Source: Candidatus Poribacteria bacterium (GTDB lineage: Bacteria > Poribacteria > WGA-4E > GCA-2687025). Taken from it: a stretch of 64,000 nt of DNA. The stretch is from contig OY762492.1 of the NCBI GenBank assembly GCA_963665845.2, forward strand, positions 3,008,001 through 3,072,000, given 5' to 3'. Made by a program: the position numbers and the translations under genes. Positions 615-55,472 of this stretch are shown piece by piece. The stretch's first letter is position 1. Each line of letters starts with the position of its first letter. The notes under the pieces are model-generated. The model saw nothing but the letters and a program-made list of their open reading frames with translations, ran no database searches and was not told the origin of the DNA.

Positions 615-2776
615 CGCGACAGGCTTTAAAAACGCTGCGCGCCCCTTCGGTTCAGGCGCATGCGAGCTATGCGGTTTTGTGCGCCGTTTCGTTGGCGCTG
701 GGATTGGGTCTACAGCTGGACGCGCGCCTGCATTTTGAGTACCGCAGCGCGCATGGCGTCATCGGATGGGTGAGCGTCCACGAGTATGCGAAGTCGCAGG
801 AGACGCTGTATTATCTGCTCGCTGTCTTCGGCGTTCCGCTTTTCATTGCGCTGTGCCTGTTTGCTTGCGCGTTGTTTAGCCGATGGATGTCTCGGCAGAC
901 GGGGCAGTCAGAGGCGTGGACGTTTCAGCGGTGCGCGTTCGCGTTGACGCCGCTGCTGCTCGCCTGTTTCTTTTTTAAGACGGCGGTTGGGTTAGCCTTG
1001 CTGTCGTTTTTGACGGTTTATACCGCGGGCTATTTTCTTTCGTCTAAGCCGCCGCCTGAAGCGAAACACGCCGATTCCGCTTCCCAGCCAAAAAAGAGCG
1101 CGCCCAAAACGCCCGCATGGAAAACGGCGCGACTCCTTTTAATATATGTCCTGATCCCGGCGCTTCTTTATCTGCTGTACTATTCGGGGGGAATCAACGG
1201 CGGCATCGACATGTTCCATGAGGGCGAACGGCTCGCGCCGCTGAACGAAATGCTGCGCGGCGGCGTTCCGTATCGGGACATCTACATTCAGCATGGGCTG
1301 TTTGAAAACGCTTTTTTGGCGCGCGTCGGGGCGGCGCTGTTCGGAGAGACGCTTGCCGGCGTTCGGCTGATGCAGCGGCTGCTCGGGCCGGTCGGTTATA
1401 TCGCGCTCTACATTCTCGGCGTTCAGTTATACCGCGGCTCATGGGCGTCCGCGCTGATACTTGTCATGATCGCGTCGGGGCATCATACAGGCGTCACGGC
1501 GCGGCATACGTTTGGGCTGTTGTGCGCCGCCATGTCGGTCGCCGCGCTTCAACAGGACGGAGCGCGCCGTCTTTGGATGATCGGCGCGTCGGGTTTGTGC
1601 GCCGGCTTCGCGTTCTGGCACAGCGCCGAGATCGGAATGTATTCGATCTGCGCCGTCGGCCTGTTCTGGACAATTCGCCTATTCGCCAAAGCGGAGACGA
1701 GAGACGAGCGGCTGCGCCCTGTTCTGTTTTTCAGCGCGGGGGTCGCTGCTGGGCTAGCTCCCGCCGCGCTCTGGCTGCTGCGGCATGGCGCGCTGGACGA
1801 CGCCGTCCGCAACACGTACATACAGCTCGCTTACCAGTTGGACACGTGGGGTTTGCCGTTCCCGCCGCTTGAGCGGGCGCTTCAGCCGTTCAAACAGCAT
1901 GGGCTGCTGGGCGGATGGAATGAGTTTATCGGAAGCGAGCCGCTGCGTTGGTATCTGCCGCCTGCCGCGTTGATCGCCGCCGGCGCCGTTCTCGTTCGGC
2001 GCGCTGTTCAAGGCGGTTTTTGGAAACATGAGGCATGCGTTAAGGGTTTGCTGACGGCGCTCTGTTTAGCCGCTTTTTTCCGCACGGCGCTGGGCAGGTC
2101 GGACGGCGGGCATCTGGTCTTCGGGTCCACCTTCTTTTGGCCGCTGCTACTGCTTCCGCTGGACAGGTCCGCCGCGGGCGTCTGGGACGCGCTTCGGGCG
2201 AAACGGAAGCTGACCGCGAGGCAGTGGGCATGGGCGGCGCTGCCGATACTGATCGCCGCGCTGTACGCCGGGCGCGTTCATCGCCCCGTTGCGGCGTTTC
2301 AAAGCCGATGGAACGGCATGCTCCAAAACCAGTTCAACCTGCCGAGAGCGGAGGAGGAGCTGACACGCGCCGGCCCGATCGACCTGCCGGACGATCAGGT
2401 TCAGCAGATTCAAGCGGTGGCGACGTTCATACAGGAGAACACGGCTCCCGGCGAACGCATTTTCGATTTCTCCAGTCAAGGCGCGTACTACTTCTTCGCC
2501 GACCGCCCCGCCGCGACCCGCTACCATCAGATCTGCTACGCCTCGGCGCCGGAGCTGGAGCGGGAAGTCATCAACGCGCTTGAAAAAGACCGGACGCGGC
2601 TTGTTCTGTATAAAACGGGCGGCTGGTTCGACACGGTGGACGGCATCGACAGCGAGCTGCGCTACCCCCAAATCGCGCTTTATTTATGCGATAATTATGA
2701 AGAGTACATTAATATCGATGGCGCGCGGGTATGGATGCGCATTCATGGGGCGGATTCCGCTCAACCGCCCTATTGA
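599..2776 (+). CDS. Polytopic membrane protein, putative GT-C-fold glycosyltransferase-like
   Basis: 725 aa with many hydrophobic helices; motifs GxxPYRDIYIQHG and YYFFADRP; soluble C-terminal domain. Confidence 0.6.
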   Translation: MGKRLTRQALKTLRAPSVQAHASYAVLCAVSLALGLGLQLDARLHFEYRSAHGVIGWVSVHEYAKSQETLYYLLAVFGVPLFIALCLFACALFSRWMSRQTGQSEAWTFQRCAFALTPLLLACFFFKTAVGLALLSFLTVYTAGYFLSSKPPPEAKHADSASQPKKSAPKTPAWKTARLLLIYVLIPALLYLLYYSGGINGGIDMFHEGERLAPLNEMLRGGVPYRDIYIQHGLFENAFLARVGAALFGETLAGVRLMQRLLGPVGYIALYILGVQLYRGSWASALILVMIASGHHTGVTARHTFGLLCAAMSVAALQQDGARRLWMIGASGLCAGFAFWHSAEIGMYSICAVGLFWTIRLFAKAETRDERLRPVLFFSAGVAAGLAPAALWLLRHGALDDAVRNTYIQLAYQLDTWGLPFPPLERALQPFKQHGLLGGWNEFIGSEPLRWYLPPAALIAAGAVLVRRAVQGGFWKHEACVKGLLTALCLAAFFRTALGRSDGGHLVFGSTFFWPLLLLPLDRSAAGVWDALRAKRKLTARQWAWAALPILIAALYAGRVHRPVAAFQSRWNGMLQNQFNLPRAEEELTRAGPIDLPDDQVQQIQAVATFIQENTAPGERIFDFSSQGAYYFFADRPAATRYHQICYASAPELEREVINALEKDRTRLVLYKTGGWFDTVDGIDSELRYPQIALYLCDNYEEYINIDGARVWMRIHGADSAQPPY

Positions 2777-2801
2777 CATGCCCGCGGTATAATGTTACAA
2801 T
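2773..2801 (+). promoter_or_regulatory. sigma70-type promoter of the crystallin-flotillin operon
   Basis: TTGACA (2773-2778), 17 bp spacer, TGn-extended TACAAT (2796-2801). Confidence 0.8.
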
Positions 2802-2880
2802 CGCCTTAGCCTGCGCATAGAAGACGAAAGCGGCGCCAATGAAGCCGCTTCAGATTTGTTTATTGGTACGGAGAATCGAG

Positions 2881-4281
2881 ATGCCTGCAATCAATCCCCG
2901 CCTGATCCTTGAAGCGTATGAGCAGCCGAACTACGGCGGCGTCGCAGGCTATTTTGTCGACCCTGAACCGTCGCTCTGGCGCGTCGGCTTTCGCAACGGC
3001 TTCCGATCCGCCCGCGTCTACCGCGGACCTGGATACAAACGCGGACCGAACTACCGAATCGTTCTGTTCGACCGCTCCAACTACGAAGGGCGCAAACTGG
3101 TTCTCGCGCCCGGCTATTATCCCGACCTGCTGGACGTTGCGGTTCAGCACACGGGGCGGTTCCGCTCCTTCAACATCGCGCCGGATTACAACATCTCCGG
3201 TCCCGAATGGGGTACGGTGCCGGTCATCGTTCAGCTGTTCAACGACCCCGACTACAGGGGGCGGCATGCGACCGTTCTGCGCGATGTGCCGAACACGCAC
3301 AGCGAACTCGGCATGGCGGACACGATCAGCTCCGTCCGCGTCATCAAAGGCTCCGACTTTCCGCCGCAGGGCGCGAAGGTGCGCCTTTTCGAGCATCTGG
3401 ACTACGGCGGTCCGTTTCTTGAAATCGCCATGACAACCTACGACATGAAAAAGGAGATACCCGACCTGTCGATGCTTCCGATGGTCGGCGGGCAGTACGC
3501 CTCCACTTTCGGAAACGCGATCTCTTCGGTGCAGATCGAAGGATGGGCGTCGTCGGGAGAGTTTATGGAGATGGCGTACACCGACGAATTTGACCAAGCG
3601 GGAATGAACGAGGTTTGGCAATGGGTCGACCCGGCGGGCGGCGGAGAATGGCGCGAACGGCAAGGGTATCTTGAAATGCGCGCCGACCCCGGACAAGACC
3701 TGTGGCACGGCAACCCGCCCGGCAGCGGCGGCGATATGGACGCGCCGAGAATACTCATGGAGTACAGCGGCGACTTCGCCATCGAAACGCGGCTGCCGGT
3801 CACCCCGCAGCTGCGCGAACATGGCGGGCTGCTGGTCTGGAAAAGCCCAGGGCGTTTTTTGAGGCTTGAAAAAACATCCGGGGCGCATGCTTTCCGCGGC
3901 GCGGTGCGTTTTGAACGGCATGTGAACCGCGTCTTCCGCCTCGTCGGACGAGGACCGAACAACCTGATCCGAACGCGGCATCTCTACCTGCGGCTTGAAC
4001 GCCGGCGCAATCAGTTCACAGGCTTTGCCAGCCAAGACGGGCAGACCTGGGCAAACTGCGGCGTCACGAATGTCGGCATGGGCGATCCTGTTCAGATCGG
4101 ACTTCACGGACTCTGCCCCGGCAACATACCGCCGACCATCACCCGTTTCGACTACTTCCGCGTCTTCTCCAGAAAAGGCGAGGCGGTTCAGCTTCGGTTC
4201 CGACCGCAGGAGATCGAGCTGGACGAGCAGCAGGCAGACGCGCGGCGCATCGCCGCCCTGAGACGATTCATGGACGCATAA
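2881..4281 (+). CDS. Beta/gamma-crystallin domain protein with C-terminal concanavalin-A-like (DUF1349-like) domain
   Basis: Four Greek-key-like motifs (YEQPNYGG, FDRSNYEGR, FNDPDYRGR..ADTISSVRV, FEHLDYGG..GNAISSVQI); C-terminal lectin-like sandwich (DAPRIL..GDFAIET..LRLERRRNQFTGFASQDGQTW); RBS GGAG before ATG 2881; no signal peptide. Confidence 0.75.
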   Translation: MPAINPRLILEAYEQPNYGGVAGYFVDPEPSLWRVGFRNGFRSARVYRGPGYKRGPNYRIVLFDRSNYEGRKLVLAPGYYPDLLDVAVQHTGRFRSFNIAPDYNISGPEWGTVPVIVQLFNDPDYRGRHATVLRDVPNTHSELGMADTISSVRVIKGSDFPPQGAKVRLFEHLDYGGPFLEIAMTTYDMKKEIPDLSMLPMVGGQYASTFGNAISSVQIEGWASSGEFMEMAYTDEFDQAGMNEVWQWVDPAGGGEWRERQGYLEMRADPGQDLWHGNPPGSGGDMDAPRILMEYSGDFAIETRLPVTPQLREHGGLLVWKSPGRFLRLEKTSGAHAFRGAVRFERHVNRVFRLVGRGPNNLIRTRHLYLRLERRRNQFTGFASQDGQTWANCGVTNVGMGDPVQIGLHGLCPGNIPPTITRFDYFRVFSRKGEAVQLRFRPQEIELDEQQADARRIAALRRFMDA

Positions 4282-4287
4282 GAAAGG

Positions 4288-4455
4288 CAGACCTCATGCG
4301 TAAAGTTGGGACATTTGAGCGAATAATCGCTCTATTCATGGGAAAAAGCCGTCGCCTACCAGACCGTCATTCCCGCGCAAGCGGGAATCCAGAGTCTACC
4401 CCGAAACCGTTCGCGTTCACAACCAGAATTGTCTCAACTCTAAGGATGAGGTAAG
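4288..4455. mobile_element. 168-bp MITE-like element, copy 1
   Basis: Imperfect ~26-bp terminal inverted repeats (CAGACCTCATGCGTAAAGTTGGGACA / TGTCTCAACTCTAAGGATGAGGTAAG); flanking 8-bp direct repeat AAGAAAGG (4280-4287, 4456-4463); central ATTCCCGC-N4-GCGGGAAT palindrome. Confidence 0.85.
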
Positions 4456-4473
4456 AAGAAAGGCGCACGAACC

Positions 4474-6000
4474 ATGGCGGTCAATCCGCGCATCATTGTT
4501 GAGCTGTTTAGGGACAAGCACTTTCAGGGGACGAAGGCGACCGTCGTGGAGCCGATCGACGATCTGAAAGAGATCGGGATGGACGAAACGATTTCCTCCA
4601 TCAAGGTTTATCACGGACCGGGCGCCGCGGCGGCGCCGAATCAGCGCGTCGTTTTCTTTGAACAGACGCGGTATCAGGGGCGCAAGATCACGCTTCCGCC
4701 CGGTTTCTATCCGGATATTCATGCGATACCGTACAACTTCGGCGATGTTGTGTCCTCGCTCAACTTTTCCTCCTCCGCCCGGCTGACCGCGCCGAAATAC
4801 GGCTGGATGCCGCTCATCGTGGAGGTGTTTCAAGACCTGAACTACAAAGGGCGGCGCGCGACCATCATGCGCGACACCAGCTACATCGGCGAGATCGGCA
4901 TGAACGACCGCATCTCCTCCATGCGCGTCACGCGCGGACCGAACTTTCCGTTCACGGGATGCCGCGCCGTTTTCTTTCAGCATCCCGACTATGAGGGGCG
5001 CGAGCTGTCGATCGCCCTCGGACCGCGCGACTTCTCCGTCCAGATCTCCAACCTAGACGACTACAACCTACGGACGCGGGCGGGCGAAACGATACAGCAT
5101 ATCGACGCCGACCGCGGCATTGAGAATCTGACAAAAACAGGCTTCGACAACACGATCAGCTCCGTCAAAATACTGCCGACCGGCAACTTCAACGTCCTCG
5201 TCATCGAAGGCGATTCGCACACGCGCGAACCCGGCATTTTGGAGGATTTCCGCGAACATCAGGGCAACATCTTCCGCTTCGACCATGTCCGCATCAACCA
5301 GGACATAGAGAACAGCGGCTCGGCGGACGCGGTGGAGTTTGAATCGATTCTGCACCTGCTCGACAATTACGACATCATCTGGCTCACCTGGAACGCGCCT
5401 GGGCATAACGGCTCCTATTTTCTGGAGCCGTCTGGGGAACGCGCCATACAGGAGTGGGTCAAGGCGGGCGGAACGCTCTGGGCGTCCGCGATGGACGACA
5501 ACATTGAAACGGACGAAAAAGAGGGCAAGAAATGGAGAGGCGACTGGCTGCCCGTTTACCGGCACCCGGCGCGCGTTGTGAACTCGGAGGATGTGAAGGT
5601 CTGGATGACGCGGGAGGGGCGCAAGACGGGGCTTTTCACCTGGCCCGATAAAGTGGACCCGGAGCGCATTCAAACGGACGACCACTGGGTCACGACCGAC
5701 CCCTCGTACACGATTTTAGCCCGGCGCGACGACAACCAGGAGCCGATTGCCGCGCAGTTGCCTTGGGGGGACGGGCATTATATTCTGTTTGCCGTGGACA
5801 CCCGTTCGGATGAAGTTGCCGAGGCGGCGCGTCCGCTCATCGGCAACGCGCTCTGTTTTCTCGCCAGCTTGGCATGGGCGACCTCGCCGCGGCAGCCCCT
5901 GCGCGGTCGCGCGCGGTCGGCAGGGGGCATGTCCAGCGCCGGCGTCGTTGACCGGACAAGAAATCGACGGCCGCAACCGTATCGAAGGAGCGTCACATGA
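4474..6000 (+). CDS. Beta/gamma-crystallin domain protein with C-terminal class I glutamine amidotransferase-like (flavodoxin-fold) domain
   Basis: Four Greek-key motifs ending DETISS, GDVVSS, NDRISS and DNTISS; C-terminal LDNYDIIWL...AIQEWVKAGGTLW...WGDGHYIL; N-terminus paralogous to the 2881 gene. Confidence 0.75.
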   Translation: MAVNPRIIVELFRDKHFQGTKATVVEPIDDLKEIGMDETISSIKVYHGPGAAAAPNQRVVFFEQTRYQGRKITLPPGFYPDIHAIPYNFGDVVSSLNFSSSARLTAPKYGWMPLIVEVFQDLNYKGRRATIMRDTSYIGEIGMNDRISSMRVTRGPNFPFTGCRAVFFQHPDYEGRELSIALGPRDFSVQISNLDDYNLRTRAGETIQHIDADRGIENLTKTGFDNTISSVKILPTGNFNVLVIEGDSHTREPGILEDFREHQGNIFRFDHVRINQDIENSGSADAVEFESILHLLDNYDIIWLTWNAPGHNGSYFLEPSGERAIQEWVKAGGTLWASAMDDNIETDEKEGKKWRGDWLPVYRHPARVVNSEDVKVWMTREGRKTGLFTWPDKVDPERIQTDDHWVTTDPSYTILARRDDNQEPIAAQLPWGDGHYILFAVDTRSDEVAEAARPLIGNALCFLASLAWATSPRQPLRGRARSAGGMSSAGVVDRTRNRRPQPYRRSVT

Positions 6001-9000
6001 GAATTGGAATTACGATCGGCGTCGCAGTGATCGCAGTCTTCTTCGCCGCTATCGCGCCGGAAAGGCTCGGCATGGATAATATGATCACTGACAAAACGAT
6101 CTCTGGATTGCTCAAGTACGGCATGTTGATCGGCTTGCCGGTCGTCGCGGCTCTGGCGGCGATGTACCGTTATGAAAAGCCGCGCGCCGATCAAGCCCTG
6201 GTGCGGACGGGGGGGCGCAAGGAAAAGATATCCATCACAGGCGGCCTCTGGGTCAATAAAATTATCCATGAAATACGCCAGATTTTTCTGGACACGGTGC
6301 GGCTGGACATTGTCCGCGTCGGGCCGGACGCGCTCATCACCAGCGATTTTTTAAGGGCGGACATTGAGGCGGCGTTTTTTATACGGGTGGAACCTGACCC
6401 GGACCAGATACTGCGGGCGGCGCAGAGCCTCGGCGAACGCACCATGACCGCCGAGGAGCTGACGGAGCTGCTTGAACAAAAACTGGAAGGCGCCCTGCGC
6501 ACCGTCGCCGCCGAGAAGGAGCTGCAAGACCTGCTTCAAAAACGCAAAGACTTTGGGGAAGCGGTTCAAGAATCGGTGAAAACCGACCTTGAAGAGAACG
6601 GCTTGACCCTAGAGACCGTCTCGCTCATCCGAGTCGACCAGGCGCCGCTGGAATCGATGGACGAGAACAACCAGTTTGACGCGCAGGGGATTCTCAAGAT
6701 CACCGAGATAACGCAAGAGAACCGATATGAAGCGGAGAAGATACGCCTGGAGGTTGACGTTCAGATCACGGAGGCGGAGACCAGTACCCAGGAAGAGAAG
6801 CTGGAGCTGAACAAGCGGCTCGCGTGGGCGGAGGCGGAGCAGGCGAAGGAGATCGCGACCTACGCCGCCGAGAAAGAGGCGGACACGCTTGCCTTCCAGT
6901 ATGAGCAGGATCAGCGGATTCAAGAGACGGAGCAGATGACGAAACTCGCCATTGAGCGCGCCACGATTGAGCAGGAACAGGGCGTGCTGGAGCGCGAGAT
7001 CGAGAAGCTGCTGCATGTGGAGACGGCGCGGATACAGCAGGAGCAGTTCGTTCAAGAGGCGGAGATTGAAAAGAACCTCAACGTGGAGCTGGCGCAAGTT
7101 GACCAGTCGCAGAAGGTTCAGATCGCCGAAGTGGAGCGGATGCTGGCGGTTGAAATGGCGCGGGTCGCTCAAGAGCAGACGGTGGAAGAACGCGAAATTG
7201 AGCGGAATCTGGGCGTTGAAACGGCTGAAATCGCGCAGCAAGAGGCGGTTCAGGTGCGCGATGTGGAGCGCGTCATGGCGACCGAGACGGCGCGCATTGA
7301 TCAAGAACGTGTCGTCCAAACGCGCGATATTGAAAAGAACCTCATCATCGAAACGGCGCAAATCGACCAGACGCGGCAGGTTCAGGAGGCGGAAATCGAA
7401 CGAAGCTTGCGCGTGGAAACGGCAAGAATCGCCCAAGAGCAGATCGTTAAAGAACGCGATATTGAGCGCGAACTCGGCATCCAGATTGCCCAGATTGCGC
7501 AGCAGGAGGGTACGCAGGTTCGAGAAATTGAGCGTGTCTTGGCAACCGAGACGGCGCGCATCGATCAGGAGCGGGTCGTCCAAACGCGCGACATCGAAAA
7601 GAACCTGATCATTGAGACTGCGCAGATCGATCAGACGCGCCAAGTCCAAGAGGCGGAAATCGAACGAAGCTTGCGCGTTGAAACGGCAAGAATCGCCCAA
7701 GAGCAGATCGTTAAAGAACGCGATATTGAGCGCGAACTCGGCATTCAAATCGCCCAGATCGCGCAACAGGAAGGAACGCAGGTCAGAGAAATTGAGCGGG
7801 TCTTGGCAACCGAAACGGCGCGCATTGACCAAGAGCGTGTCGTCCAAACGCGCGACATCGAAAAGAACCTGATCATCGAAACGGCGCAAATCGACCAAAC
7901 GCGGCAGGTGCAAGAGGCGGAAATCGAACGAACCTTGCGCGTCGAGACGGCGCGCATCGCCCAAGAGCAGATCGTTAAAGAACGCGATATTGAGCGCGAA
8001 CTCGGCATTCAAATCGCGCAGATCGCGCAGCAGGAAGGAACGCAGGTCAGAGAAATTGAGCGGGTCCTGGCGACTGAAACGGCGCGCATCGATCAGGAGC
8101 GGGTCGTCCAAACGCGCGACATCGAAAAGAACCTCATCATCGAAACGGCGCAAATCGACCAAACGCGGCAGGTGCAAGAGGCGGAAATCGAACGAACCTT
8201 GCGCGTGGAAACGGCAAGAATCGCCCAAGAGCAGATCGTTAAAGAGCGCGATATTGAGCGCGAACTCGGCATCCAGATCGCGCAAATCGCGCAGCAGGAA
8301 GGAACGCAGGTCAGAGAAATTGAGCGGGTCTTGGCAACCGAAACGGCGCGCATCGATCAGGAGCGGGTCGTCCAAACGCGCGATATTGAAAAGAACCTGA
8401 TCATTGAGACGGCGCAAATCGACCAAACGCGCCAAGTCCAAGAGGCGGAAATCGAACGAACCTTGCGCGTCGAGACGGCGCGCATCGCCCAAGAGCAGAT
8501 CGTTAAAGAACGCGATATTGAGCGCGAACTCGGCATCCAGATCGCCCAGATCGCGCAACAGGAAGGAACGCAGGTTAGAGAGGTTGAGCGGGTCCTGGCA
8601 ACCGAGACGGCGCGCATCGATCAGGAGCGGGTCGTCCAAACGCGCGACATCGAAAAGAACCTGATCATAGAGACGGCGCAAATCGACCAGACGCGGCAGG
8701 TTCAAGAGGCGGAAATCGAACGAACCTTGCGCGTTGAAACGGCAAGAATCGCCCAAGAGCAGGTCGTTAAAGAGCGCGATATTGAACGCGAACTCGGCAT
8801 CCAGATCGCGCAAATCGCGCAGCAGGAAGGAACGCAGGTTAGAGAAATTGAGCGTGTCTTGGCAACCGAAACGGCGCGCATCGATCAGGAGCGGGTCGTC
8901 CAAACGCGCGACATCGAAAAGAACCTGATTATCGAAACGGCGCAAATCGATCAGACGCGCCAAGTTCAAGAGGCGGAGATCGAACGAACCTTGCGCGTTG

Positions 9001-10151
9001 AAACGGCAAGAATCGCCCAAGAGCAGATCGTTAAAGAACGCGATATTGAGCGCGAACTCGGCATCCAGATCGCGCAGATCGCGCAACAGGAAGGAACGCA
9101 GGTCAGAGAAATTGAGCGGGTCTTGGCAACCGAAACGGCGCGCATCGATCAAGAGCGGGTCGTCCAAACGCGCGACATCGAAAAGAACCTCATCATCGAG
9201 ACGGCGCAGATTGATCAAACGCGCCAAGTCCAAGAGGCGGAAATCGAACGAACCTTGCGCGTTGAAACGGCAAGAATCGCCCAAGAGCAGATCGTTAAAG
9301 AACGCGATATTGAGCGCGAACTCGGCATTCAGATTGCCCAGATCGCGCAGCAGGAAGGAACGCAGGTTCGAGAAATTGAGCGCGTCTTGGCAACCGAAAC
9401 GGCGCGCATCGATCAAGAGCGGGTCGTCCAAACGCGCGACATCGAAAAGAACCTCATCATCGAGACAGCGCAGATCGACCAGACAAGGCAGGTGCAGGAG
9501 GCGGAGATCCAGCGCACCTTAGTGGTGGATACGGCGCGGATCAATCAGGAGATGATGGTCGCCTTGGTCGGCGAAGACAAAAACATCTCGATCTTCAACC
9601 GTCAGCGCGACACCGAATTGTCTGAACGGGACAAGCTGGAAGCCGAGGCCGAAAAGGCTGAAGCGATGGTGAACGTGTCGGCGGTGGAACGCACGCGCGA
9701 AGCGGAATGGCAGCGCGAAGTGGCGATCATCAACGCCGAGAGTCAGGCGCAGCCGATAGAGCGGCTTGCCGAAGCGATACTCGCCGAGGCGCAGGCAAAG
9801 GCGGAAGGCGAAATGGCGCACCTGCAAGCGCGCAACACCGCCGAACAGCGCGTCCTCGTACAAGAAGCGGTTATGGAGCTGATCGACCGCTCCCCCGACA
9901 TCGTTGAGCAGATGGTGAAGCCCGCCGAGCAGATCGACAGCATCAAAATACTGGACATGGGGCAAGGCGACGGACCCGCCAACCGAAACAACATGGGCAA
10001 ACTTGCCAACACGATACTGGACACGGGCGTTCTGTCGCCGATTTTGAAGGAGCTGTTCAACTTCGCCGATGTGGACGCGGAGCAGATTGCGGACAAGCTG
10101 ACCGAGTATCTGGGCGCGCTCATTCGTCCGCAGGCGCCCGACAACGACTAG
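5997..10151 (+). CDS. Giant flotillin / SPFH (band 7) family protein with tandem-repeat coiled-coil stalk
   Basis: N-terminal TM helices; SPFH core (ALVRTG..LITSDFLRADIEAAFFIRV..LEGALRTVAA..ENGLTLETVSL..NNQFDAQG); flotillin C-terminus (KPAEQIDSIKILDMG); ATGA overlap with the upstream gene. Confidence 0.9.
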   Translation: MRIGITIGVAVIAVFFAAIAPERLGMDNMITDKTISGLLKYGMLIGLPVVAALAAMYRYEKPRADQALVRTGGRKEKISITGGLWVNKIIHEIRQIFLDTVRLDIVRVGPDALITSDFLRADIEAAFFIRVEPDPDQILRAAQSLGERTMTAEELTELLEQKLEGALRTVAAEKELQDLLQKRKDFGEAVQESVKTDLEENGLTLETVSLIRVDQAPLESMDENNQFDAQGILKITEITQENRYEAEKIRLEVDVQITEAETSTQEEKLELNKRLAWAEAEQAKEIATYAAEKEADTLAFQYEQDQRIQETEQMTKLAIERATIEQEQGVLEREIEKLLHVETARIQQEQFVQEAEIEKNLNVELAQVDQSQKVQIAEVERMLAVEMARVAQEQTVEEREIERNLGVETAEIAQQEAVQVRDVERVMATETARIDQERVVQTRDIEKNLIIETAQIDQTRQVQEAEIERSLRVETARIAQEQIVKERDIERELGIQIAQIAQQEGTQVREIERVLATETARIDQERVVQTRDIEKNLIIETAQIDQTRQVQEAEIERSLRVETARIAQEQIVKERDIERELGIQIAQIAQQEGTQVREIERVLATETARIDQERVVQTRDIEKNLIIETAQIDQTRQVQEAEIERTLRVETARIAQEQIVKERDIERELGIQIAQIAQQEGTQVREIERVLATETARIDQERVVQTRDIEKNLIIETAQIDQTRQVQEAEIERTLRVETARIAQEQIVKERDIERELGIQIAQIAQQEGTQVREIERVLATETARIDQERVVQTRDIEKNLIIETAQIDQTRQVQEAEIERTLRVETARIAQEQIVKERDIERELGIQIAQIAQQEGTQVREVERVLATETARIDQERVVQTRDIEKNLIIETAQIDQTRQVQEAEIERTLRVETARIAQEQVVKERDIERELGIQIAQIAQQEGTQVREIERVLATETARIDQERVVQTRDIEKNLIIETAQIDQTRQVQEAEIERTLRVETARIAQEQIVKERDIERELGIQIAQIAQQEGTQVREIERVLATETARIDQERVVQTRDIEKNLIIETAQIDQTRQVQEAEIERTLRVETARIAQEQIVKERDIERELGIQIAQIAQQEGTQVREIERVLATETARIDQERVVQTRDIEKNLIIETAQIDQTRQVQEAEIQRTLVVDTARINQEMMVALVGEDKNISIFNRQRDTELSERDKLEAEAEKAEAMVNVSAVERTREAEWQREVAIINAESQAQPIERLAEAILAEAQAKAEGEMAHLQARNTAEQRVLVQEAVMELIDRSPDIVEQMVKPAEQIDSIKILDMGQGDGPANRNNMGKLANTILDTGVLSPILKELFNFADVDAEQIADKLTEYLGALIRPQAPDND
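7020..9530 (+). repeat. Intragenic tandem repeat, 264-bp (88-aa) unit, about 9.5 copies
   Basis: ETARIDQERVVQTRDIEKNLII starts at 7284, 7548, 7812, 8076, 8340, 8604, 8868, 9132 and 9396; a diverged unit lies at 7020-7283. Confidence 0.95.
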
Positions 10152-10157
10152 CGGCGC

Positions 10158-11120
10158 ATGGGGGCGTTAGCCGAGATCGTCGGGCATGAGACGCAGATAG
10201 AGTTGCTTCGGAGCGCCGTTGAATCGCGCAGTCCGGCGGAGGCGTATCTGTTTGCGGGTTTGCCGGGCGTCGGGAAAAAGACGCTGGCGCTCGCCTTTGC
10301 CGCGGCGCTCAACTGCGAGGAGTCGGCGGACGACGCATGCGGCGAGTGCGTCTCATGCAGAAAAGCCGTCTCGCTGAACCATCCGGACGTTCGCCTCTTT
10401 CAACCGGACGGCGCCGTTTTTAAGGTGGATCAGGTGCGCGAAATACGCCGCCTGCTCACCTTTCAACCGATGGAGGCGCGGCGCAAAGCGTATGTGTTGA
10501 CCGACGTGGAAACGATGCGCGCCGAAGCGGCGAACGCTTTTTTGAAGTCGCTGGAGGAGCCGCCCGGCGCGACGACGATTATCCTGACAACCTCCAACAT
10601 CAACGCGCTGCTGCCGACGATACTATCCCGCTGCCAGATTTTGAAGCTGCTGCCGGCCTCCATGGAGACGCTGACGGCGGCCCTCGCGGAGCGCGGCATG
10701 GAGGAAGCGGAGGCGCTGGCTCTCGCGCGGCAGTCCGGCGGACGGGCGGGGCGCGCTTTTCAAGCGATGTCCGCCAAACAAAGCGCCGGCGCGGACGAGC
10801 AGATCGAAGCGCTGCGGCAGGCGGACGAGCTGGACGCCTTCCGTCTGGCGGAGAGCTGGCAGACGCGGCCTGAACAGCTGGAGGATCTGATGGCGTCGCT
10901 GCGGCGGGCGCTTCAGTGGCGCGTCGGGATTAAGCGGGAGGAATGCTCCGTCGCGCTGGCGGCGTTCGCGCGCGGCGAGACGGAGCGGTCGCTTCAACGC
11001 AAAATGCGCGCCGTCATGGAGGCGCAATACAGGCTCAAACGGAACCTGAACGGCGCGCTTGTGATGGAATGCCTCGCCTTTCAGCTGCTGGCGCCGCCCG
11101 GCGGACAGCGGCGCCGTTAG
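10158..11120 (+). CDS. holB: DNA polymerase III delta' subunit
   Basis: AYLFAGLPGVGK, Zn motif CxxxxxxxACGECVSC, HPD, AANAFLKSLEEPP, LLPTILSRC. Confidence 0.92.
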   Translation: MGALAEIVGHETQIELLRSAVESRSPAEAYLFAGLPGVGKKTLALAFAAALNCEESADDACGECVSCRKAVSLNHPDVRLFQPDGAVFKVDQVREIRRLLTFQPMEARRKAYVLTDVETMRAEAANAFLKSLEEPPGATTIILTTSNINALLPTILSRCQILKLLPASMETLTAALAERGMEEAEALALARQSGGRAGRAFQAMSAKQSAGADEQIEALRQADELDAFRLAESWQTRPEQLEDLMASLRRALQWRVGIKREECSVALAAFARGETERSLQRKMRAVMEAQYRLKRNLNGALVMECLAFQLLAPPGGQRRR

Positions 11121-14100
11121 GGGCTTCTGCCGGCGTCCCAGACGCGAATCGCGCTTCCGCCTCCGCTGACAAGCCTCAACCCGTCCGGCGAAAAGGCGAG
11201 CGAGCGAACCCTGTCCGTGTCTCCTTTGAACGTTTGGAGACGCTTGCCTGTCTCGGCGTCCCAGACGCTTATCGTTTTGTCGTAGCCGCCGGCGGCAAGC
11301 TTGGCGCCGTCCCGCGAATACGCCACAGCGTAGATAGAGGACGGACCCCTTCTGAACGCATGCAGCTGCTCTCCTGTCTCGGCGTCCCAGACATAGACCG
11401 CGCCGTCTCGGCCGGCGGTGGCGATCTTGGAGCCGTCCGGCGAATACGCCGCCGAATAAACTTCGAGCCGATGCCCTCTGAGCGTTAGGAGAACGCCGCC
11501 TGTTTCGACATCGAAGATGTACACTTTATGGTCGGAGCAGCCGGCGGCGATCCTGGAGCCGTCTGGAGAATAGGCGGCGGTACGGACGCCTGAAGACGCC
11601 GCGAAGGTTTTTAAAAGCGCTCCGGTCTCGGCGTCCCAGACGCGTACCGTGCCGTCGTAGCTGCCGCTGGCGATCCTGGAACCGTCCTGTGAATACGCCG
11701 CCTCCGTAACCGAGTGTGTATGCCCCTTGAGCGTATGCAGAAGCGCGCCGGTCTCGGCGTCCCAGATGCGTACCGTCTTGCCGGCGCCGCCGGCGAGCCT
11801 GGAACCGTCCGGAGAATAGACGCTGCCCGAATGCCCTTTGAGCGTTCGCAGCTCCTCGCCTGTATTGGCGTCCCAGATGCGAACCGTCGTGCCGACGCGG
11901 CCGGCGATCTTGGAGCCGTCCGGCGAATAGACTGCCGCCGCATGCGACGCCTCCCCGTTTCCTCTTAAAACGGCTCTCAAAGCGGGATCGTTGAGATAAA
12001 TGTTGGACGCGGCATTGTCCCCGACGGAGCTGAGCGGAACGCTCACCTCAACCGCGGTCTGCCCTGACGGTTCGATGATCGCTCTGTAGATGGAGCCGAC
12101 GCCTTGAAAGCCGCGGACGCTGCCGTATTTGACAGAGATGTCCTCATGCGTGAAGCCGTCCGCGACGCCGCTAAAGGCGATCGTTACCTCAAACGGAATC
12201 TGCATCCCTTTTTCAGGTCCGCTCACCGTCACGGTTAACGGCGGCGCCGGCTCCGCCTTCAGCCGCCAAATGCGCATCGCTTGATCGTCTCCCGCGCTCA
12301 CAAGCGCGCGTCCGTCCGGGGAGATGTCCACCGCGCGGACGGCGCCGTTATGCGCCTTGTATGTTTGCGCCGGCTCGCCTGTTTCGGCGTTTAAGAGGCG
12401 AATCATGCCGTCCTCCCCGCCGTCGGCGAGCGCGTTGTCTTCAAAATGATCGGCTAAATACGCCTCCCCAGAAGCGCCGGTCAATGTGCGAATCGCTTCG
12501 CCGGTCGAAGCGTCCCAGACGCGAACCGCCCCGTCCTCTCCCGCAGAGACGAGCGACTTGCCGTCGGAGGAAAAGGCGGCGAATGGTACGGCGCCGGAAT
12601 GCGCTTTGATCGTTTGAAGAATAACCCCTGCCGCGGGGTTCCAGATATGGATGGAGCCGTCCGCCCCTCCGCTGACAATCATCGTTCCGTCCGGCGAATA
12701 TGCGGCGGTATGGACGGCGCCCGTAGACCCCTTCAGCGTTAGGAACCGCTTGCCGGTTTCGGCGTCCCATAGATGTATCGCGCCGTCCGCCCCGCCGCTG
12801 ACAATCTCGGCGCCGTTGGGCGAATACGCGGCGCACAGTACGGAACCTGTATGCCCCGTCCATTCCGCCTTCAAGAGGAGGCAGGCGGCGTAGATGTTGG
12901 AGGGGAGATGGCTGCCTGCGGCGTTTGCGGGAACTTTGACCCGCGTGTAGTCGGCGCCGATGGGCTGAATGAGCGCCTGATACGCGGCGCCAGAACCGCT
13001 TAGGCTGACAACCTTTCCGTTCACCGCCTCAATGTCGGACGGCTCAAAGCCGCTGACCGGTTCGCTAAAGACGATGTCGGTTGTAAAGGCGCCGTCAACG
13101 ACATCGTCGGGTCCGCTCACCTTCACCGTCAAGGGCGGAGGCGGCGGTTCGCCCGCTTTGACCGTCCAAAGCCGAACCGAGTTGTCCGAGCTGCCGCTGG
13201 CAAGCATGAAACCGTCCGGCGAAAAGGCGATCGAAAGTACCTCATCCGTATGCCCTTCATATGTTTGCAGCGGTTTGCCGGTTGCGGCGTCCCAGATTCG
13301 CGCCGTTTTGTCTTCGCTTCCGCTGGCGATCATGGAGCCGTCCGGCGAAAAGGCGGCGGATCGAACCTTGTCGGTATGCCCTGTGAGCGTGCGGATCGTT
13401 TCGCCCGTTTTGAGTTCCCAGATCCGAACGGCGTCAGTCTCTCCGGCGCTGGCGACCAGTTCGCCGTCCGGCGAAAAGGCGACCGTATGAATGGAACCAA
13501 AAGGATCGTTGAACGCGCGGATCGTCTCGCCCGTCTCGGCGTTCCAGATGCGTACCGCGCTTCGGCTTGCGCTGGCGAGCATAGACCCGACCATCGAAAA
13601 GGCGACGATATTGACCTCGTCGGAATGCCCTGTGAGCGTTCGCAGATGCTCCCCTGTGGCGGCGTCCCAGATGCGTATTGTTTTATCGTCGCTTGCGCTG
13701 GCGAGCATGGAGCCGTCCGGCGAATAGGCAACCGAACGCACATAATCGGAATGCCCTGTGAGCGTTCGGATTATTTTGCCGGTTTCAGGACTCCAAATTT
13801 CAACGTTTTTGTGCGGATCAATGGCAAGCATGGAGCCGTCCGGCGAAAAGACGGGGAATCCCCTCTCTCTAATCTGTTGAAGCGTCTCGCCGGTTGCAGG
13901 GTTCCATATCATCGTCCATGGATAACCGCAGCTGGCAATCAGGGAGCCGTCCGGCGAAAAGGCGACCGAAACGACCCCATCGGTATGCTCGGTGAACGCC
14001 GCTTTCGCGGCTGGATAAAAGGAGTACGCGTTGGATTGGATGTTGTTCGCGGCGGCTTTCTTTGGAACGCGAACGCGCGCGGCGTCCAAGCCGGCGGGCT

Positions 14101-15262
14101 GGATCGTCGCCGTATAGAGATCGCCGTCTCCGCTGAAGTTCGTCACGGCGCCGTTTTCCACATGAATATCGGACTTCCGAAAGCCTTTCACACTCATGCT
14201 GAACTGGATCGTTATATCAAAGGTTCCCTCTCCGCTCGCCTTCCCGCCGTTGATCCGCACAGAGGGGCCGGACATAGTAGGCAGGTCTTTCCAGAGAAGA
14301 ATCGTCTTGCCGTCAACGCCTGCGAGCGTCGTACCGTCCGGCGAAAACGCTTCAGATGAAACAAAACCTGTACTCCCTTTGAACGTTCGGAGAAGCGCGC
14401 CCGAGTAGGCGTCCAAGATCTGATTGTCGTCGCTGACAGCAATCATTTTTCCGTCCGGCGAAAACGCGATGGACCAGCTGTTGCCGATATTCCCTTGGAG
14501 CGTTCGGAGAGGCGCGCCCGATTGGGCATCCCAGATGCGAATCGTGTTGTCGGCGCTTCCGCTGGCGAGCAGTGAGCCGTCCGGCGAAAAGGCGACCGAA
14601 TAGATGTTGTCGGTATGCCCTTCGAGCGTCTGGAGAATCTCGCCCGTCTCTGCGTCGCGGATGTGTACCGTATCGCCTCTGCCGCCGTTGGCGAGTTTGG
14701 TTCCGTCCGGCGAAAAGGCGGCGGAATAGACAACAGGCGTGAATCCTTCCCGCTCATTGCCTCGAAGCGTCAGCAGCCTGTCGCCGGTTTCAGGGTTCCA
14801 AACCCCGAACCTATGCCCTCCGCCGACGAGTTTGGTTCCGTCCGGCGAAAAGGCGATGGAAAGGTAACCTTCCGTATCGATTGTTCGCAGATGTTCGCCC
14901 GTTTCAGGGTCCCAGATGCGTATCGTCTCATCGCTTCCTCCGCTGGCGAGCATGGAGCCGTCCGGCGAATAGACGAGGGAACGGATGTTTTTTGTATGCC
15001 CTTCCAGCGTTTGCAGCGTCTCGCCTGTCTTCAGGTTCCAGATGCGTATCGTCTTGTCATCGCTTCCGCTGGCGAGCATGGAACCGTCCGGCGAATAAGC
15101 GGCAGCCCTGACCAAATCGGCATGCCCTTCCAGCGTTTGCGCCGCGTCAGGTTTGTTGAGATAAAAATAGGCGCTCACCCCCAACGCAACTGCCGCAAAG
15201 AGCAATCCGATACGCGCGGGCGTGGATGAGACGGCTTTTTTCATGCGCGTTTTCATCTTCAT
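11117..15262 (-). CDS. Membrane-anchored multi-propeller WD40 protein with three Ig-like spacer domains
   Basis: N-terminal hydrophobic segment; GH..V..AFSPDG..LASG..D.TIRIW repeats in four blocks separated by Ig-like segments (F.V.I.FS..V.GF..SDI.V.NG). Confidence 0.9.
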   Translation of the reverse strand: MKMKTRMKKAVSSTPARIGLLFAAVALGVSAYFYLNKPDAAQTLEGHADLVRAAAYSPDGSMLASGSDDKTIRIWNLKTGETLQTLEGHTKNIRSLVYSPDGSMLASGGSDETIRIWDPETGEHLRTIDTEGYLSIAFSPDGTKLVGGGHRFGVWNPETGDRLLTLRGNEREGFTPVVYSAAFSPDGTKLANGGRGDTVHIRDAETGEILQTLEGHTDNIYSVAFSPDGSLLASGSADNTIRIWDAQSGAPLRTLQGNIGNSWSIAFSPDGKMIAVSDDNQILDAYSGALLRTFKGSTGFVSSEAFSPDGTTLAGVDGKTILLWKDLPTMSGPSVRINGGKASGEGTFDITIQFSMSVKGFRKSDIHVENGAVTNFSGDGDLYTATIQPAGLDAARVRVPKKAAANNIQSNAYSFYPAAKAAFTEHTDGVVSVAFSPDGSLIASCGYPWTMIWNPATGETLQQIRERGFPVFSPDGSMLAIDPHKNVEIWSPETGKIIRTLTGHSDYVRSVAYSPDGSMLASASDDKTIRIWDAATGEHLRTLTGHSDEVNIVAFSMVGSMLASASRSAVRIWNAETGETIRAFNDPFGSIHTVAFSPDGELVASAGETDAVRIWELKTGETIRTLTGHTDKVRSAAFSPDGSMIASGSEDKTARIWDAATGKPLQTYEGHTDEVLSIAFSPDGFMLASGSSDNSVRLWTVKAGEPPPPPLTVKVSGPDDVVDGAFTTDIVFSEPVSGFEPSDIEAVNGKVVSLSGSGAAYQALIQPIGADYTRVKVPANAAGSHLPSNIYAACLLLKAEWTGHTGSVLCAAYSPNGAEIVSGGADGAIHLWDAETGKRFLTLKGSTGAVHTAAYSPDGTMIVSGGADGSIHIWNPAAGVILQTIKAHSGAVPFAAFSSDGKSLVSAGEDGAVRVWDASTGEAIRTLTGASGEAYLADHFEDNALADGGEDGMIRLLNAETGEPAQTYKAHNGAVRAVDISPDGRALVSAGDDQAMRIWRLKAEPAPPLTVTVSGPEKGMQIPFEVTIAFSGVADGFTHEDISVKYGSVRGFQGVGSIYRAIIEPSGQTAVEVSVPLSSVGDNAASNIYLNDPALRAVLRGNGEASHAAAVYSPDGSKIAGRVGTTVRIWDANTGEELRTLKGHSGSVYSPDGSRLAGGAGKTVRIWDAETGALLHTLKGHTHSVTEAAYSQDGSRIASGSYDGTVRVWDAETGALLKTFAASSGVRTAAYSPDGSRIAAGCSDHKVYIFDVETGGVLLTLRGHRLEVYSAAYSPDGSKIATAGRDGAVYVWDAETGEQLHAFRRGPSSIYAVAYSRDGAKLAAGGYDKTISVWDAETGKRLQTFKGDTDRVRSLAFSPDGLRLVSGGGSAIRVWDAGRSP

Positions 15263-17403
15263 TTCTTCTCTCCGTTGGCGCCGGCGGGGGCGGGAATCTC
15301 CCAGATGCGGACCGTCTTGTCGTCGCTGCCGCTGGCGAGCGAGCGGCCGTCCGGCGAAAAGGCAACCGCAAAAACGCTGCCGTAATGCCCCTCAAGCGTT
15401 CGGATCCGCTTGCCGGTTGCGGCGTCCCATATCCGAATCGTATAGTCTCGGCTGCCGCTGGCAAGCATGGAGCCGTCCGGCGAAAAGGCTAACGAATAAG
15501 CCCAATCGGTATGCCCCGTGAGCGTGTGGAGCGGCTTTCCTGTCGCTGCGTCCCATATCCGAATCACGTCGTCCGATCCGCCGACAGCGAACGCGGAGCC
15601 GACCGGCGAAAAGGCTAACGTAAAATAGTCGCCGAATTGCATTTGGAACATTCGCGCTGTTTCTCCTGTTGCGAGGCTCCAAATCCGAATCGTATTGTCG
15701 TAGCTGCCGCTGGCAAGCATGGAGCCGTCCGATGAAAAGGCGGCCGACGCGAGATCGTCCTTATGCCCTTTGAGCGTTTGCAGATGCTCTCCCGTGTCGG
15801 CGTCCCAGATGCGTACGGTTCGGTCCCCGCTGGCGCTGGCAAGCATGGAGCCGTCCCGCGAATACGACACCGAGTTGACCGAGCCTGTATGCCCTTTGAG
15901 CGTTTGGAGCGTTTTGCCTGTTTCGACGCTCCATATTCGAATCTCGCTGTTTCCATAGCCGCTGACAAGTTTCGTACCGTCCGGCGAATAGGCTAGAAAG
16001 TTGACCCATCCAGCGCCTTGGATGGTTCGAAGCGGCTCTCTTGCCGCAGGATTCCAGAGATGAATCTCTTGGTCATCGCCGATGGCAAGCGTCTTCCCGT
16101 CCGGCGAATAGGCGACAGCGCTGACCGAATACGCATGCTCCTTCAGCGCCGTTTTCAATGCGGAGTTGAAACGAAAGATGTTGGAGGCGGCGTTGCGGTC
16201 GACTGCGTTCGCCGCAACCATAACGCGCGTTGTGTCAAGGCTCATCGGCTGGATGGTCGCTTTGTAGGAATCGCCAGAGCCGCTGAAGCGGATAATGGCG
16301 CCGTTTTTTACCTGAATATCGGACTGCTCAAAGCCTTTCACGCTTTCGCTGAAGGAGACGGCTACATTAAATGCGCCTTTGCCGTATTCGCGCTCGCCTG
16401 TGATCCATACAGAGGGGCCGGTCAGGACAGGCGCTTCCCATATCTGAATCGTGCCGTCATAGTTGGCGCTGGCAACCGCTTTCCCGTCCGGCGAAAAGGC
16501 GGCGGAATAAACAAAAGGAGGATACCCTTCCAGCGTTTGGAGAACGGCGCCCGAGTAGGAATCCAGGATATAAAAGACGCCGTCCCAGCCGTGGACAACC
16601 ATCGTGGAACCGTCCGGCGAATAGTAGGCAAAATAAACATAATCCCCGTCTCCCTCAAAGATGCGGATCGTCTCGCCCTTTTCGACATCCCAAATGCGAA
16701 CGGTGTTGTCGATGCTTCCGCTGGCAAGCCGCGTTCCGTCCGGCGAAAAGCAAACGGAGTAGCAGTCTTCGGTATGCCCTTCCAGCGTTTGGAGCGTCTC
16801 GCCTGTTTCAACATCCCAAATGTGAATCGCGCCGCCGAACCCGCTGCCGTTGACCAGCCTTGTTCCGTCCGGCGAAAAAGCGAGGGCGCTGGCGGCGTCC
16901 CTGTGTTCACTCCTCTCAAATGTTCGGAGCGTCTCGCCTGTTTTAGGGTTCCAGACGATGACGACGCTGTCGCCGCAGCCGCTGGCGAGCATGGAGCCGT
17001 CCGGCGAAAAAACGATCGAATAGATATGAGCGGTATGCCCATGGAACGTTCGGAGCGTCTCGCCCGTGTTAGGGTCCCAAATGCGAACGGCGTTGTCGCC
17101 GCCGCCGCTGGCAAGCATAGACCCGTCCGGCGAATAGGCGGCGACATAGACGTCGCCCGTGTGTCCTTTGAGCGTTCGTATTGTCTCGCCTGTTTTGGCG
17201 TCCCAGATGCGAACCGTATCGTCTCGGCCGCCGCTGGCAAGTTTTGCGCCGTCCGGCGAATAGACCACTCTCAGAACGGATCCCGTATGCCCTTTGAGCG
17301 ATTTTCTCACGGGCTGGCTGCGGAGCGATCGGTTACTTCCTAGCGCCAACGCGGCGAGGATTAAGCAGGTCAAAACGAGGGCGGACGGGGGGCGTCTTCT
17401 CAT
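15259..17403 (-). CDS. Exported WD40 protein (WD7-Ig-WD7)
   Basis: Signal-like N-terminus, RBS AGGAG, two 7-repeat WD40 blocks around an Ig-like domain; ATGA overlap with the next gene. Confidence 0.9.
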   Translation of the reverse strand: MRRRPPSALVLTCLILAALALGSNRSLRSQPVRKSLKGHTGSVLRVVYSPDGAKLASGGRDDTVRIWDAKTGETIRTLKGHTGDVYVAAYSPDGSMLASGGGDNAVRIWDPNTGETLRTFHGHTAHIYSIVFSPDGSMLASGCGDSVVIVWNPKTGETLRTFERSEHRDAASALAFSPDGTRLVNGSGFGGAIHIWDVETGETLQTLEGHTEDCYSVCFSPDGTRLASGSIDNTVRIWDVEKGETIRIFEGDGDYVYFAYYSPDGSTMVVHGWDGVFYILDSYSGAVLQTLEGYPPFVYSAAFSPDGKAVASANYDGTIQIWEAPVLTGPSVWITGEREYGKGAFNVAVSFSESVKGFEQSDIQVKNGAIIRFSGSGDSYKATIQPMSLDTTRVMVAANAVDRNAASNIFRFNSALKTALKEHAYSVSAVAYSPDGKTLAIGDDQEIHLWNPAAREPLRTIQGAGWVNFLAYSPDGTKLVSGYGNSEIRIWSVETGKTLQTLKGHTGSVNSVSYSRDGSMLASASGDRTVRIWDADTGEHLQTLKGHKDDLASAAFSSDGSMLASGSYDNTIRIWSLATGETARMFQMQFGDYFTLAFSPVGSAFAVGGSDDVIRIWDAATGKPLHTLTGHTDWAYSLAFSPDGSMLASGSRDYTIRIWDAATGKRIRTLEGHYGSVFAVAFSPDGRSLASGSDDKTVRIWEIPAPAGANGEKK

Positions 17404-17547
17404 CAGGTACTCCTAGGCGGCTGACTCATTTTACCGCCTGCTGAATAAGATGTGAACCCGCATGAGAAAGGGACAGGGTTCTTCCTTGCCGCGCCCGCCG
17501 ACTGCGGAAATTTGCGCAACGCCAAACGCGCCCCGCGCCGCCTTCCT

Positions 17548-17722
17548 GTCATTCCCGCGTAAGCGGGAATCTTAGGCACAGAAGACGACATCTGCAGATG
17601 TCGAAACCCCCCTAGCCCCCCTTTTCAAGGGGGGAATCCGCCGCGCAAACCCCCCTAGCCCCCCTTTTCAAGGGGGGAATCCGCCGCGCAAACCCCCCTA
17701 GCCCCCTTTTCAAGGGGGAATT
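17548..17722. repeat. Intergenic mosaic: ATTCCCGC/GCGGGAAT palindrome plus about three tandem 43-bp CCCCCCTAGCCCCCCTTTTCAAGGGGGGAATCCGCCGCGCAAA units
   Basis: Direct reading of the sequence. Confidence 0.85.
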
Positions 17723-17731
17723 CTCTGCTCC

Positions 17732-21349: not shown

Positions 21350-21469
21350 CAGGCTCTCCAAATCAGATCGACAGGTTGGTTCAGCGGACAAGCGTATGAT
21401 ACCGATTTGGACGCCGGCGGGCTATTTTAAATGCGGCTGCCGATTTTCAGCCTCATTCCGAATCCAGCC

Positions 21470-31194: not shown

Positions 31195-31269
31195 TGGGGC
31201 CAGCGAGTGGATTTGAACCACCGACCTGCTGATTACGAATCAGCTGCTCTGCCCCTGAGCTACGCTGGC
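31195..31269 (-). tRNA. tRNA-Thr(CGT)
   Basis: Cloverleaf GCCAGCG...GCTGA-TT-CGT-AA-TCAGC...GGTTCAAATCC...CGCTGGC-C-CCA. Confidence 0.95.
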
Positions 31270-31277
31270 GTCCTGAT

Positions 31278-31353
31278 TGGTGGCGGGAGGCAGAGTTGAA
31301 CTGCCGACGCAGGGATTTTCAGTCCCTCGCTCTACCACCTGAGCTACCCCGCC
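31278..31353 (-). tRNA. tRNA-Phe(GAA)
   Basis: Cloverleaf GGCGGGG...AGGGA-CT-GAA-AA-TCCCT...GTTCAAC...TCCCGCC-A-CCA. Confidence 0.95.
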
Positions 31354-55396: not shown

Positions 55397-55472
55397 GCGT
55401 CCATAGCTCAACGGATAGAGCATCAGACTTCGGATCTGAGGGTTGGGGGTTCGAATCCTCCTGGGCGCGCCA
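55397..55472 (+). tRNA. tRNA-Arg(TCG)
   Basis: GCGTCCA...TCAGA-CT-TCG-GA-TCTGA...GGTTCGAATCC...TGGGCGC-G-CCA. Confidence 0.95.

Follow-up and report, generated by a model that had tools for sequence, protein, structure and literature searches.

Why should a giant flotillin be encoded directly behind two proteins with beta/gamma-crystallin domains? The question is raised by a 64-kb stretch of a Candidatus Poribacteria genome (the window; the genome is G000 below, and coordinates marked C1 refer to the whole contig), in which genes for two such proteins, P1 and P2, precede a flotillin of the SPFH2 type. Across the phylum these three genes are inherited jointly with two others that lie outside the window, encoding a Cys-rich Zn-binding-type protein (the Zn protein) and a predicted membrane-anchored protein of Sm-like type, and from this joint inheritance we conclude that the five very probably form one functional unit. 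The original prediction, made from the sequence of the window, had taken the crystallin pair and the flotillin for the whole system; its core was borne out, but it was incomplete, as the Zn and Sm-like genes also belong.

Joint inheritance and decay of five genes

We surveyed 151 Poribacteria genomes, using thresholds (E<=1e-40 for the C-terminal domain of P2, E<=1e-60 for flotillin orthologues) that were set by hand to keep paralogues out. Synteny of the crystallin genes with the flotillin in relatives had been chosen beforehand as the test of the original prediction, and it was kept in 115/115 genomes with a flotillin orthologue: in every one, the P2 C-domain lies directly upstream of the flotillin, on the same contig and strand, 163-443 bp apart. 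This table of distances leaves out three genomes of another class, whose flotillin is more distant and which all have the order P1-P2-flotillin (3/3); in genome G009, P2 sits at the contig end. Counted singly, P2 is present in 119 genomes, flotillin in 115, P1 in 115, the Zn protein in 119, and the Sm-like protein in 120.

In two lineages the genes are absent together. All five are missing from family f2 (0/10 genomes) and from genus g15 (0/20), and PF00030, the crystallin family, was found in none of four tested genomes of the f2/g15 type; three control genes were present in 5/5 test genomes, the f2 and g15 lineages included. Genome G072 (loci L046 and L155) offers a case of joint decay: stops, frameshifts, or an insertion disrupt every one of the five genes, including the fifth, which lies ~130 kb from the others. 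The control genes of this genome carry no stops, and the cover by long open reading frames is 0.12 in the operon stretch, compared with 0.59-0.81 in five other 20-kb stretches. Other loci show how the two outlying genes connect to the rest: the full order P1-P2-flotillin-Zn-Sm occurs in G003 and the order flotillin-Zn-Sm in G009, G011, and G013, the usual gene after flotillin being that of the Zn protein, and the Zn gene also adjoins the Sm-like gene in G000 and its same-genus relative G001.

Expression data on the locus come from relatives. In the supplement of PMC5087111, a 1,416-nt crystallin gene of single amplified genome (SAG) 3G has as neighbours a PF01145 gene of 2,301 nt and a hypothetical gene of 1,305 nt, with levels of 0.91, 0.29, and 0.23 of housekeeping, respectively; these are presumably P2, flotillin, and the Zn gene, equated by length and order only. 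Contigs from RNA libraries of close relatives (four runs of one study) span every gene and the junctions P1-P2, P2-flotillin, and flotillin-holB (holB being the gene that follows flotillin in the window); DNA may be present in these libraries, the contigs cannot show one transcript, and we treat them as weak evidence of expression.

The stepwise stalk of the flotillin and its partner proteins

As originally described, the flotillin has 1,384 aa and its gene overlaps that of P2 by ATGA. Its domains become apparent only when the ends are scanned alone: the whole protein gave no Pfam match, whereas the N-terminal fragment matches Band_7 (PF01145; 64.7 bits against a cut-off of 23.6, and 65.7 bits in a second scan) and the C-terminal fragment matches Flot (PF15975; 64.8 bits against 27). 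The best NCBIfam flotillin model, FloT (NF058507), yields E 2.6e-8 and 33 bits, far below its curated cut-off of 700, and a PDB sequence search with the N-terminus returned nothing useful. Two hydrophobic segments (residues 3-21 and 35-53) with a basic stretch after them suggest an N-terminal anchor, a call made from hydropathy only.

Most of the length is taken up by a predicted wall helix at residues 228-1278 (window 6678-9830), whose 1,050 aa would give a contour of ~158 nm at 0.15 nm per residue; this and the other stalk features are sequence-based. The stalk contains one proline, at 1253, and none between residues 218 and 1252, is acidic (net -62 over 836 aa), and shows periodicities of 11, 22, and 88 residues, with 22-aa units grouped into 88-aa modules. 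In the 11-residue frame its hydrophobic residues fall into two stripes separated by roughly half a turn, as expected of helices packed side by side, and the single-stripe period of 3.67 is weak. The modules are 91% identical in DNA and differ almost only synonymously: over the 28 pairs of eight modules there are 527 synonymous and 26 non-synonymous codon differences, on which count selection on the module sequence is strongly purifying. We rejected an assembly artefact as the source of the repeats, as the genome contains no N and the modules differ by 11-29 nt.

The stalk of relatives varies in the same steps. Across 54 loci with both ends pattern-matched (of ~58 with a complete gene; G001 is counted twice), wall lengths are 346, 423, 434, 522, 610, 786, 874, and 962 aa, and 1,050 aa here; 54/54 loci are equal modulo 11 and 50/54 modulo 88. 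A separate stalk expansion, containing an assembly gap, brings the protein of G146 to 1,386 aa, and over the full orthologue range of 679-1,386 aa the partners are not visibly changed. Paralogous Poribacteria flotillins are 615-702 aa long and have one N-terminal hydrophobic segment and no crystallin neighbours. G000 holds seven Band_7 genes in total, and a separate operon at C1:656234-659500 contains two SPFH genes and one for a small membrane protein, which by eye resembles NfeD and has no PF01957 match.

How does this protein compare with known relatives? It shares Band_7 and Flot domains, an N-terminal anchor, and an expanded helical region with the SPFH2 flotillins (FloT/YuaG-YuaF of Bacillus subtilis, YqiK-YqiJ of Escherichia coli, and giant SPFH2b proteins), but it differs from them in its 1,384 aa, its two N-terminal hydrophobic segments, and its length steps of 88 aa. 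Great length alone is not new, since SPFH2b giants of 800-1,000 aa, with NfeD as the usual partner, are described in PMC2636767. NfeD was said by the original prediction to be absent, and indeed PF01957 has no match within the window; matches in G000 lie at C1:2.945 Mb, and the flotillin operon, which has no NfeD homologue, has four unrelated co-inherited partners. It is this partner set that we consider new, as it is without match in the literature searched, and giant flotillins themselves are known: the same searches, with most subscription papers outside their coverage, gave no account of Poribacteria flotillin or SPFH proteins or of crystallin-SPFH neighbourhoods, and the matches listed for Poribacteria with crystallin were off topic by title.

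P1 and P2 each contain two PF00030 stretches over the cut-off and no hydrophobic N-terminus, in keeping with the earlier claim of two crystallin-domain genes without signal peptides; their C-terminal halves are unrelated, being DUF1349 in P1 and GATase-like in P2. Like the microbial crystallins M-crystallin, Protein S, and vibrillin, they have double Greek-key domains, and their Ca2+ motifs approach the N/D-N/D-X-X-S/T-S pattern (PMC8639718, PMC3551895) to varying degrees. They differ in being fused to ConA-like or GATase-like domains, in often having Gln or Gly at motif position 1, and in their linkage to a flotillin, which was found in 0/26 metagenome loci (outside the phylum, many of them short) with non-fused crystallin relatives. 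The motifs are degenerate in domain 1 of P1, position 5 being Arg in each of the two, near-canonical in domain 2 of P1 and domain 1 of P2, and canonical in domain 2 of P2 (NDRISS and DNTISS). Among 56 P2 sequences, the four motifs carry Asp/Asn at position 2 in 48, 56, 51, and 54, and Ser/Thr at position 5 in 56, 51, 56, and 54.

The AlphaFold model of P2 (predicted local distance difference test score, pLDDT, 81.9) matches crystallins in a fold search. Its C-domain, ~240 residues without a Pfam match, reaches pLDDT 92 when modelled alone and resembles class I GATase-like folds (STM3548, ThuA-like, GH42 domain B, and IFT52-N) with a template modelling (TM) score of ~0.6; it differs from them in sequence (10-12% identity) and in having an invariant Trp/His/Asp set of its own. 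The catalytic Cys of class I GATases is missing from the domain, the presumed elbow reading WASAMDD, and a Ser-His peptidase was rejected because the secreted paralogues retain neither its Ser nor the His within TDDHW. PDB sequence searches with the domain or its profile gave nothing useful, and ESM Atlas gave leads only (DUF4960, MJECL34). Among the 150 matches listed from 1.84 billion representatives, 2 spanned the whole P2 profile, both Poribacteria-type homologues already found.

Stand-alone Poribacteria relatives of the P2 C-domain have signal peptides, a common C-terminal motif, and the invariant Trp/His/Asp also found in P2, and a Poribacteria relative of DUF1349 is likewise of secreted type with the same C-terminal motif. 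P1 and P2 thus represent signal-less versions of exported domains, each placed behind a crystallin pair; Arg-rich C-termini occur on proteins of both types. Three more crystallin-DUF1349 paralogues, all unlinked, lie in G000 at C1:2258900-2260324, 2067801-2069129, and 1654151-1655488, and have no signal peptide and Arg-rich C-terminal tails. At loci L049-L054, secreted stand-alone GATase-like proteins occur in tandem, as pairs or triplets, and share a terminal AVxPxGKLxxTWGxIK-like motif, which is probably a Poribacteria export or anchoring signal.

The Sm-like protein (750-840 aa) combines a signal peptide and a second hydrophobic segment with two putative Sm-like motifs; its C-terminal GATase-like domain is a relative of the one in P2. 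Its homologues carry precomputed PF01423/PF14438 assignments and "snRNP-like" names at JGI; an ESM Atlas search with the protein gave no match. In the other class of genomes, the GATase-like domain is present twice in P2 and missing from the Sm-like protein. One locus of that class (L043, in G041) has a flotillin split by an assembly gap and a P2 with one GATase-like domain nested inside another.

A predicted flotillin barrel and competing readings

What might five such proteins build? The physical model that we favour, and to which we give about an even chance, is a tall flotillin barrel around a membrane-anchored Sm ring, with the crystallin proteins attached. By analogy with SPFH structures, the flotillin subunits would stand side by side with their SPFH domains at the cytoplasmic face of the inner membrane, their 11-residue-periodic, two-faced helices would form the wall, and the Flot domain would close the top. 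The human flotillin-1/2 cage follows the same order, from SPFH base through non-heptad helical wall and cap helix to C-terminal domain; as given in PMC11260169, its wall measures 186 aa and the cage is 22 nm high, and the SPFH walls listed there span 44-189 residues, compared with a natural series here, predicted from sequence, of 346-1,050 aa in fixed steps. Unlike the human cage, the Poribacteria barrel would presumably be a homo-oligomer, as there is one flotillin gene. Barrel height could be tuned by the number of modules, from a contour of ~52 nm in the shortest orthologues up to ~158 nm here. The stepwise series would offer a direct way to ask if the length of the wall determines the height of the cage and if SPFH proteins are able to make tubes.

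The barrel would likely fence off a membrane client, here a ring of the Sm-like protein, as HflKC-FtsH and stomatin-type cages suggest. In those systems too an SPFH protein is genetically tied to a membrane protein that it could enclose; the difference is that here the client would be a single-pass Sm-like protein rather than a protease or channel, and that the scaffold is of flotillin type and predicted to be cytoplasmic. Both crystallin proteins, as well as the Zn protein, would likely be bound subunits of the barrel, with the crystallin proteins holding the place of NfeD in ordinary flotillin operons. More tentatively, P2 may dock on the Sm-like protein through their related GATase-like domains, P1 may join through its crystallin pair, and Ca2+ may stabilise the crystallin domains without switching them. 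As content of the compartment we have considered a sugar polymer, RNA, and protein clients. A fuller version, in which a vault-like, membrane-tethered organelle consists of a flotillin tube of up to ~150 nm with a genetic ruler of 88-residue steps, standing on an Sm ring and holding cargo with crystallin tags (lectin-like and GATase-like domains), perhaps together with RNA, strikes us as rather unlikely. The five-gene system would also provide flotillin partners in lieu of NfeD, a setting in the cell for microbial crystallin domains, and, for a sponge-symbiont phylum long suspected of unusual compartmentation, a concrete candidate structure. The 168-nm bipolar granules described in PMC5087111 were considered as the structure and rejected: nothing links the two, and the 766-aa orthologue would make a much shorter wall.

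Several observations weigh against a single unit or against the barrel. With 100/151 genomes in one family, and kin not being independent, the absences reduce to about two losses and one decay. A radical-SAM gene lies between P2 and flotillin in G004, outside the 115 genomes, and the P1, Zn, and Sm-like genes are unlinked from flotillin in many genomes (P1 orthologues in family f8 and genus g10). In SAG 3G the presumed P2 is about three times above flotillin, so the RNA stoichiometry is not 1:1. The Sm assignment comes from weak, below-cut-off Pfam matches (SM-ATX in 5/14 members, LSM in 5/14), and from a PDB match of the Sm-like protein to LSm5 at E 0.64. Reading the other class as a domain swap between P2 and the Sm-like protein makes a weak argument, because the extra GATase-like domain copies that of P2 itself and not that of the Sm protein (~25% identity). 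The flotillin of G041, from the same class, has a repeat period of 106, no multiple of 11. Finally, the oligomer reported for Staphylococcus aureus FloA-NfeD has the shape of a clamp and not of a closed cage (PMC11222466), and bacterial SPFH proteins therefore need not form barrels.

That clamp is also part of the case for a plainer explanation, which we hold to be possible though on the unlikely side: an ordinary FloT/YqiK-type membrane-microdomain scaffold, in which the flotillin makes patches or clamps, its stalk is flexible and expands neutrally, and its four partners belong to a common stress or protein-stabilising pathway but build no single tall particle. Expanded coiled coils in giant SPFH2 proteins, orthologues that double in length with no visible effect on their partners, and paralogues that do without crystallin neighbours all fit such a scaffold, whereas neutral expansion sits poorly with an 11-residue register kept at all 54 loci, with strong purifying selection on the modules, and with lengths >1,100 aa in three separate groups (family f1, G146, and G041). 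The stalk sequence, which would fit a tall SPFH barrel, likewise speaks for the membrane-tethered cage or tube of the original prediction, but its notion that Ca2+ controls the structure has been weakened. A cage that Ca2+ on the crystallin domains opens, closes, or assembles appears very improbable: the ligand positions 2 and 5 are indeed largely kept in all four P2 motifs, but resting Ca2+ in the bacterial cytosol lies below 4-100 µM. That is the range in which microbial crystallins are reported to bind Ca2+, usually with little conformational change (PMC3551895, PMC8639718), and Arg at position 5, as in both motifs of P1 domain 1, is reported to stabilise a crystallin domain without Ca2+ (PMC8639718). 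A stabilising role of Ca2+ is more probable than a switching one.

Could the compartment instead be a ribonucleoprotein particle? Major vault protein is an SPFH relative that cages RNA, and a membrane-tethered counterpart, with RNA held in the flotillin tube by an Sm-like ring, the Zn protein, and Arg-rich tails, would accommodate the two Sm-like motifs, the snRNP-like annotation of their homologues, the basic N-terminus and Cys clusters of the Zn protein, the Arg-rich C-termini of P1- and P2-type proteins, and the acidic stalk. We nevertheless judge it improbable: Pfam scans revealed no MVP repeat domain, Rfam families other than the three tRNAs were absent from the window and five related loci, so that neither MVP repeats nor an associated RNA likens the system to vaults, and rings with a purely structural role can have Sm folds too, for example in MscS. 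An anti-phage or mobile conflict system bears a superficial likeness to the cluster, in which a long coiled coil stands with Zn-binding and unknown proteins, but it is almost certainly not the explanation, given that none of six queries matched in PADLOC and that the system is single-copy, vertical-looking, preceded by a strong consensus promoter, and present in about four fifths of the sampled phylum genomes.

Operon layout and flanking features

Coordinates of the operon, its neighbours, and the two partner genes outside the window are collected in Table 1.

Table 1. Features of the crystallin-flotillin locus (window positions) and of the Zn and Sm-like genes (contig positions, C1)
Feature	Position	Strand	Description
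Sigma70-type promoter	2773..2801	+	TTGACA-17-TG-TACAAT, 11/12, extended TG; similar sites before the operon in other Poribacteria
Gene 1 (P1)	2881..4281	+	466 aa; two beta/gamma-crystallin domains, DUF1349 (ConA-like), Arg-rich C-terminal helix
Intergenic gap	4282..4473	.	REP-like palindromic repeat, core 4366-4392; outside the system
Gene 2 (P2)	4474..6000	+	508 aa; two crystallin domains, class I GATase/ThuA-like domain, conserved SPRQP tail
Giant flotillin (SPFH2)	5997..10151	+	1384 aa; two N-terminal hydrophobic segments, SPFH, predicted wall helix, Flot cap
Stalk module repeat	7266..9520	+	8.5 copies of 264 bp (88 aa = 4 x 22 aa)
holB (DNA polymerase III delta')	10158..11120	+	Lineage-specific neighbour, outside the conserved system
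Zn-binding-type protein gene	C1:1975556-1976284	-	Cys-rich; basic N-terminus, Cys clusters
Sm-like protein gene	C1:1973118-1975553	-	Adjoins Zn gene

The near-consensus sigma70 promoter noted at the outset stands: its score is matched by just 10/600 control upstream regions of G000, and sites at the operon start score >=10/12 in 14/18 related genomes and >=11/12 in 10/18. In a further set the pattern matched only 15/40 loci, 12 of which score 12/12. Region-wide, 6 promoter-like sites were found against 4.3 expected, that is, not above chance. The P1 reading frame opens at 2839, and the start at 2881 is preferred for its GGAG ribosome-binding site and its conservation in G001.

The original prediction had also listed holB, correctly placed 6 bp after flotillin, but it is not a member of the conserved unit: it follows flotillin only in G000, G001, and G007, that is, at just 3/25 loci with downstream sequence, and we therefore rejected it as an incidental neighbour. 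An upstream 725-aa membrane gene was likewise set aside; it adjoins the operon only in G000 and G001, and as a control query it was uninformative (0/5); its low cover in the RNA-library contigs carries no weight. The P1-P2 gap is short in G001 and lacks the repetitive extragenic palindromic (REP)-like repeat, which has 6 copies in the window (in this gap and at 22046, 31504, 34076, 40099, and 55191) and 714 pattern matches genome-wide. The repeat is very deep in the RNA-library contigs, and its inverted-repeat core resembles the Neisseria dRS3 repeat. On the minus strand, 11117-21391 encodes three large WD40-like repeat proteins (1381, 714, and 1219 aa; identified by eye) with hydrophobic N-termini, and the three tRNA genes of the window lie at 31198-31353 and 55397-55469.

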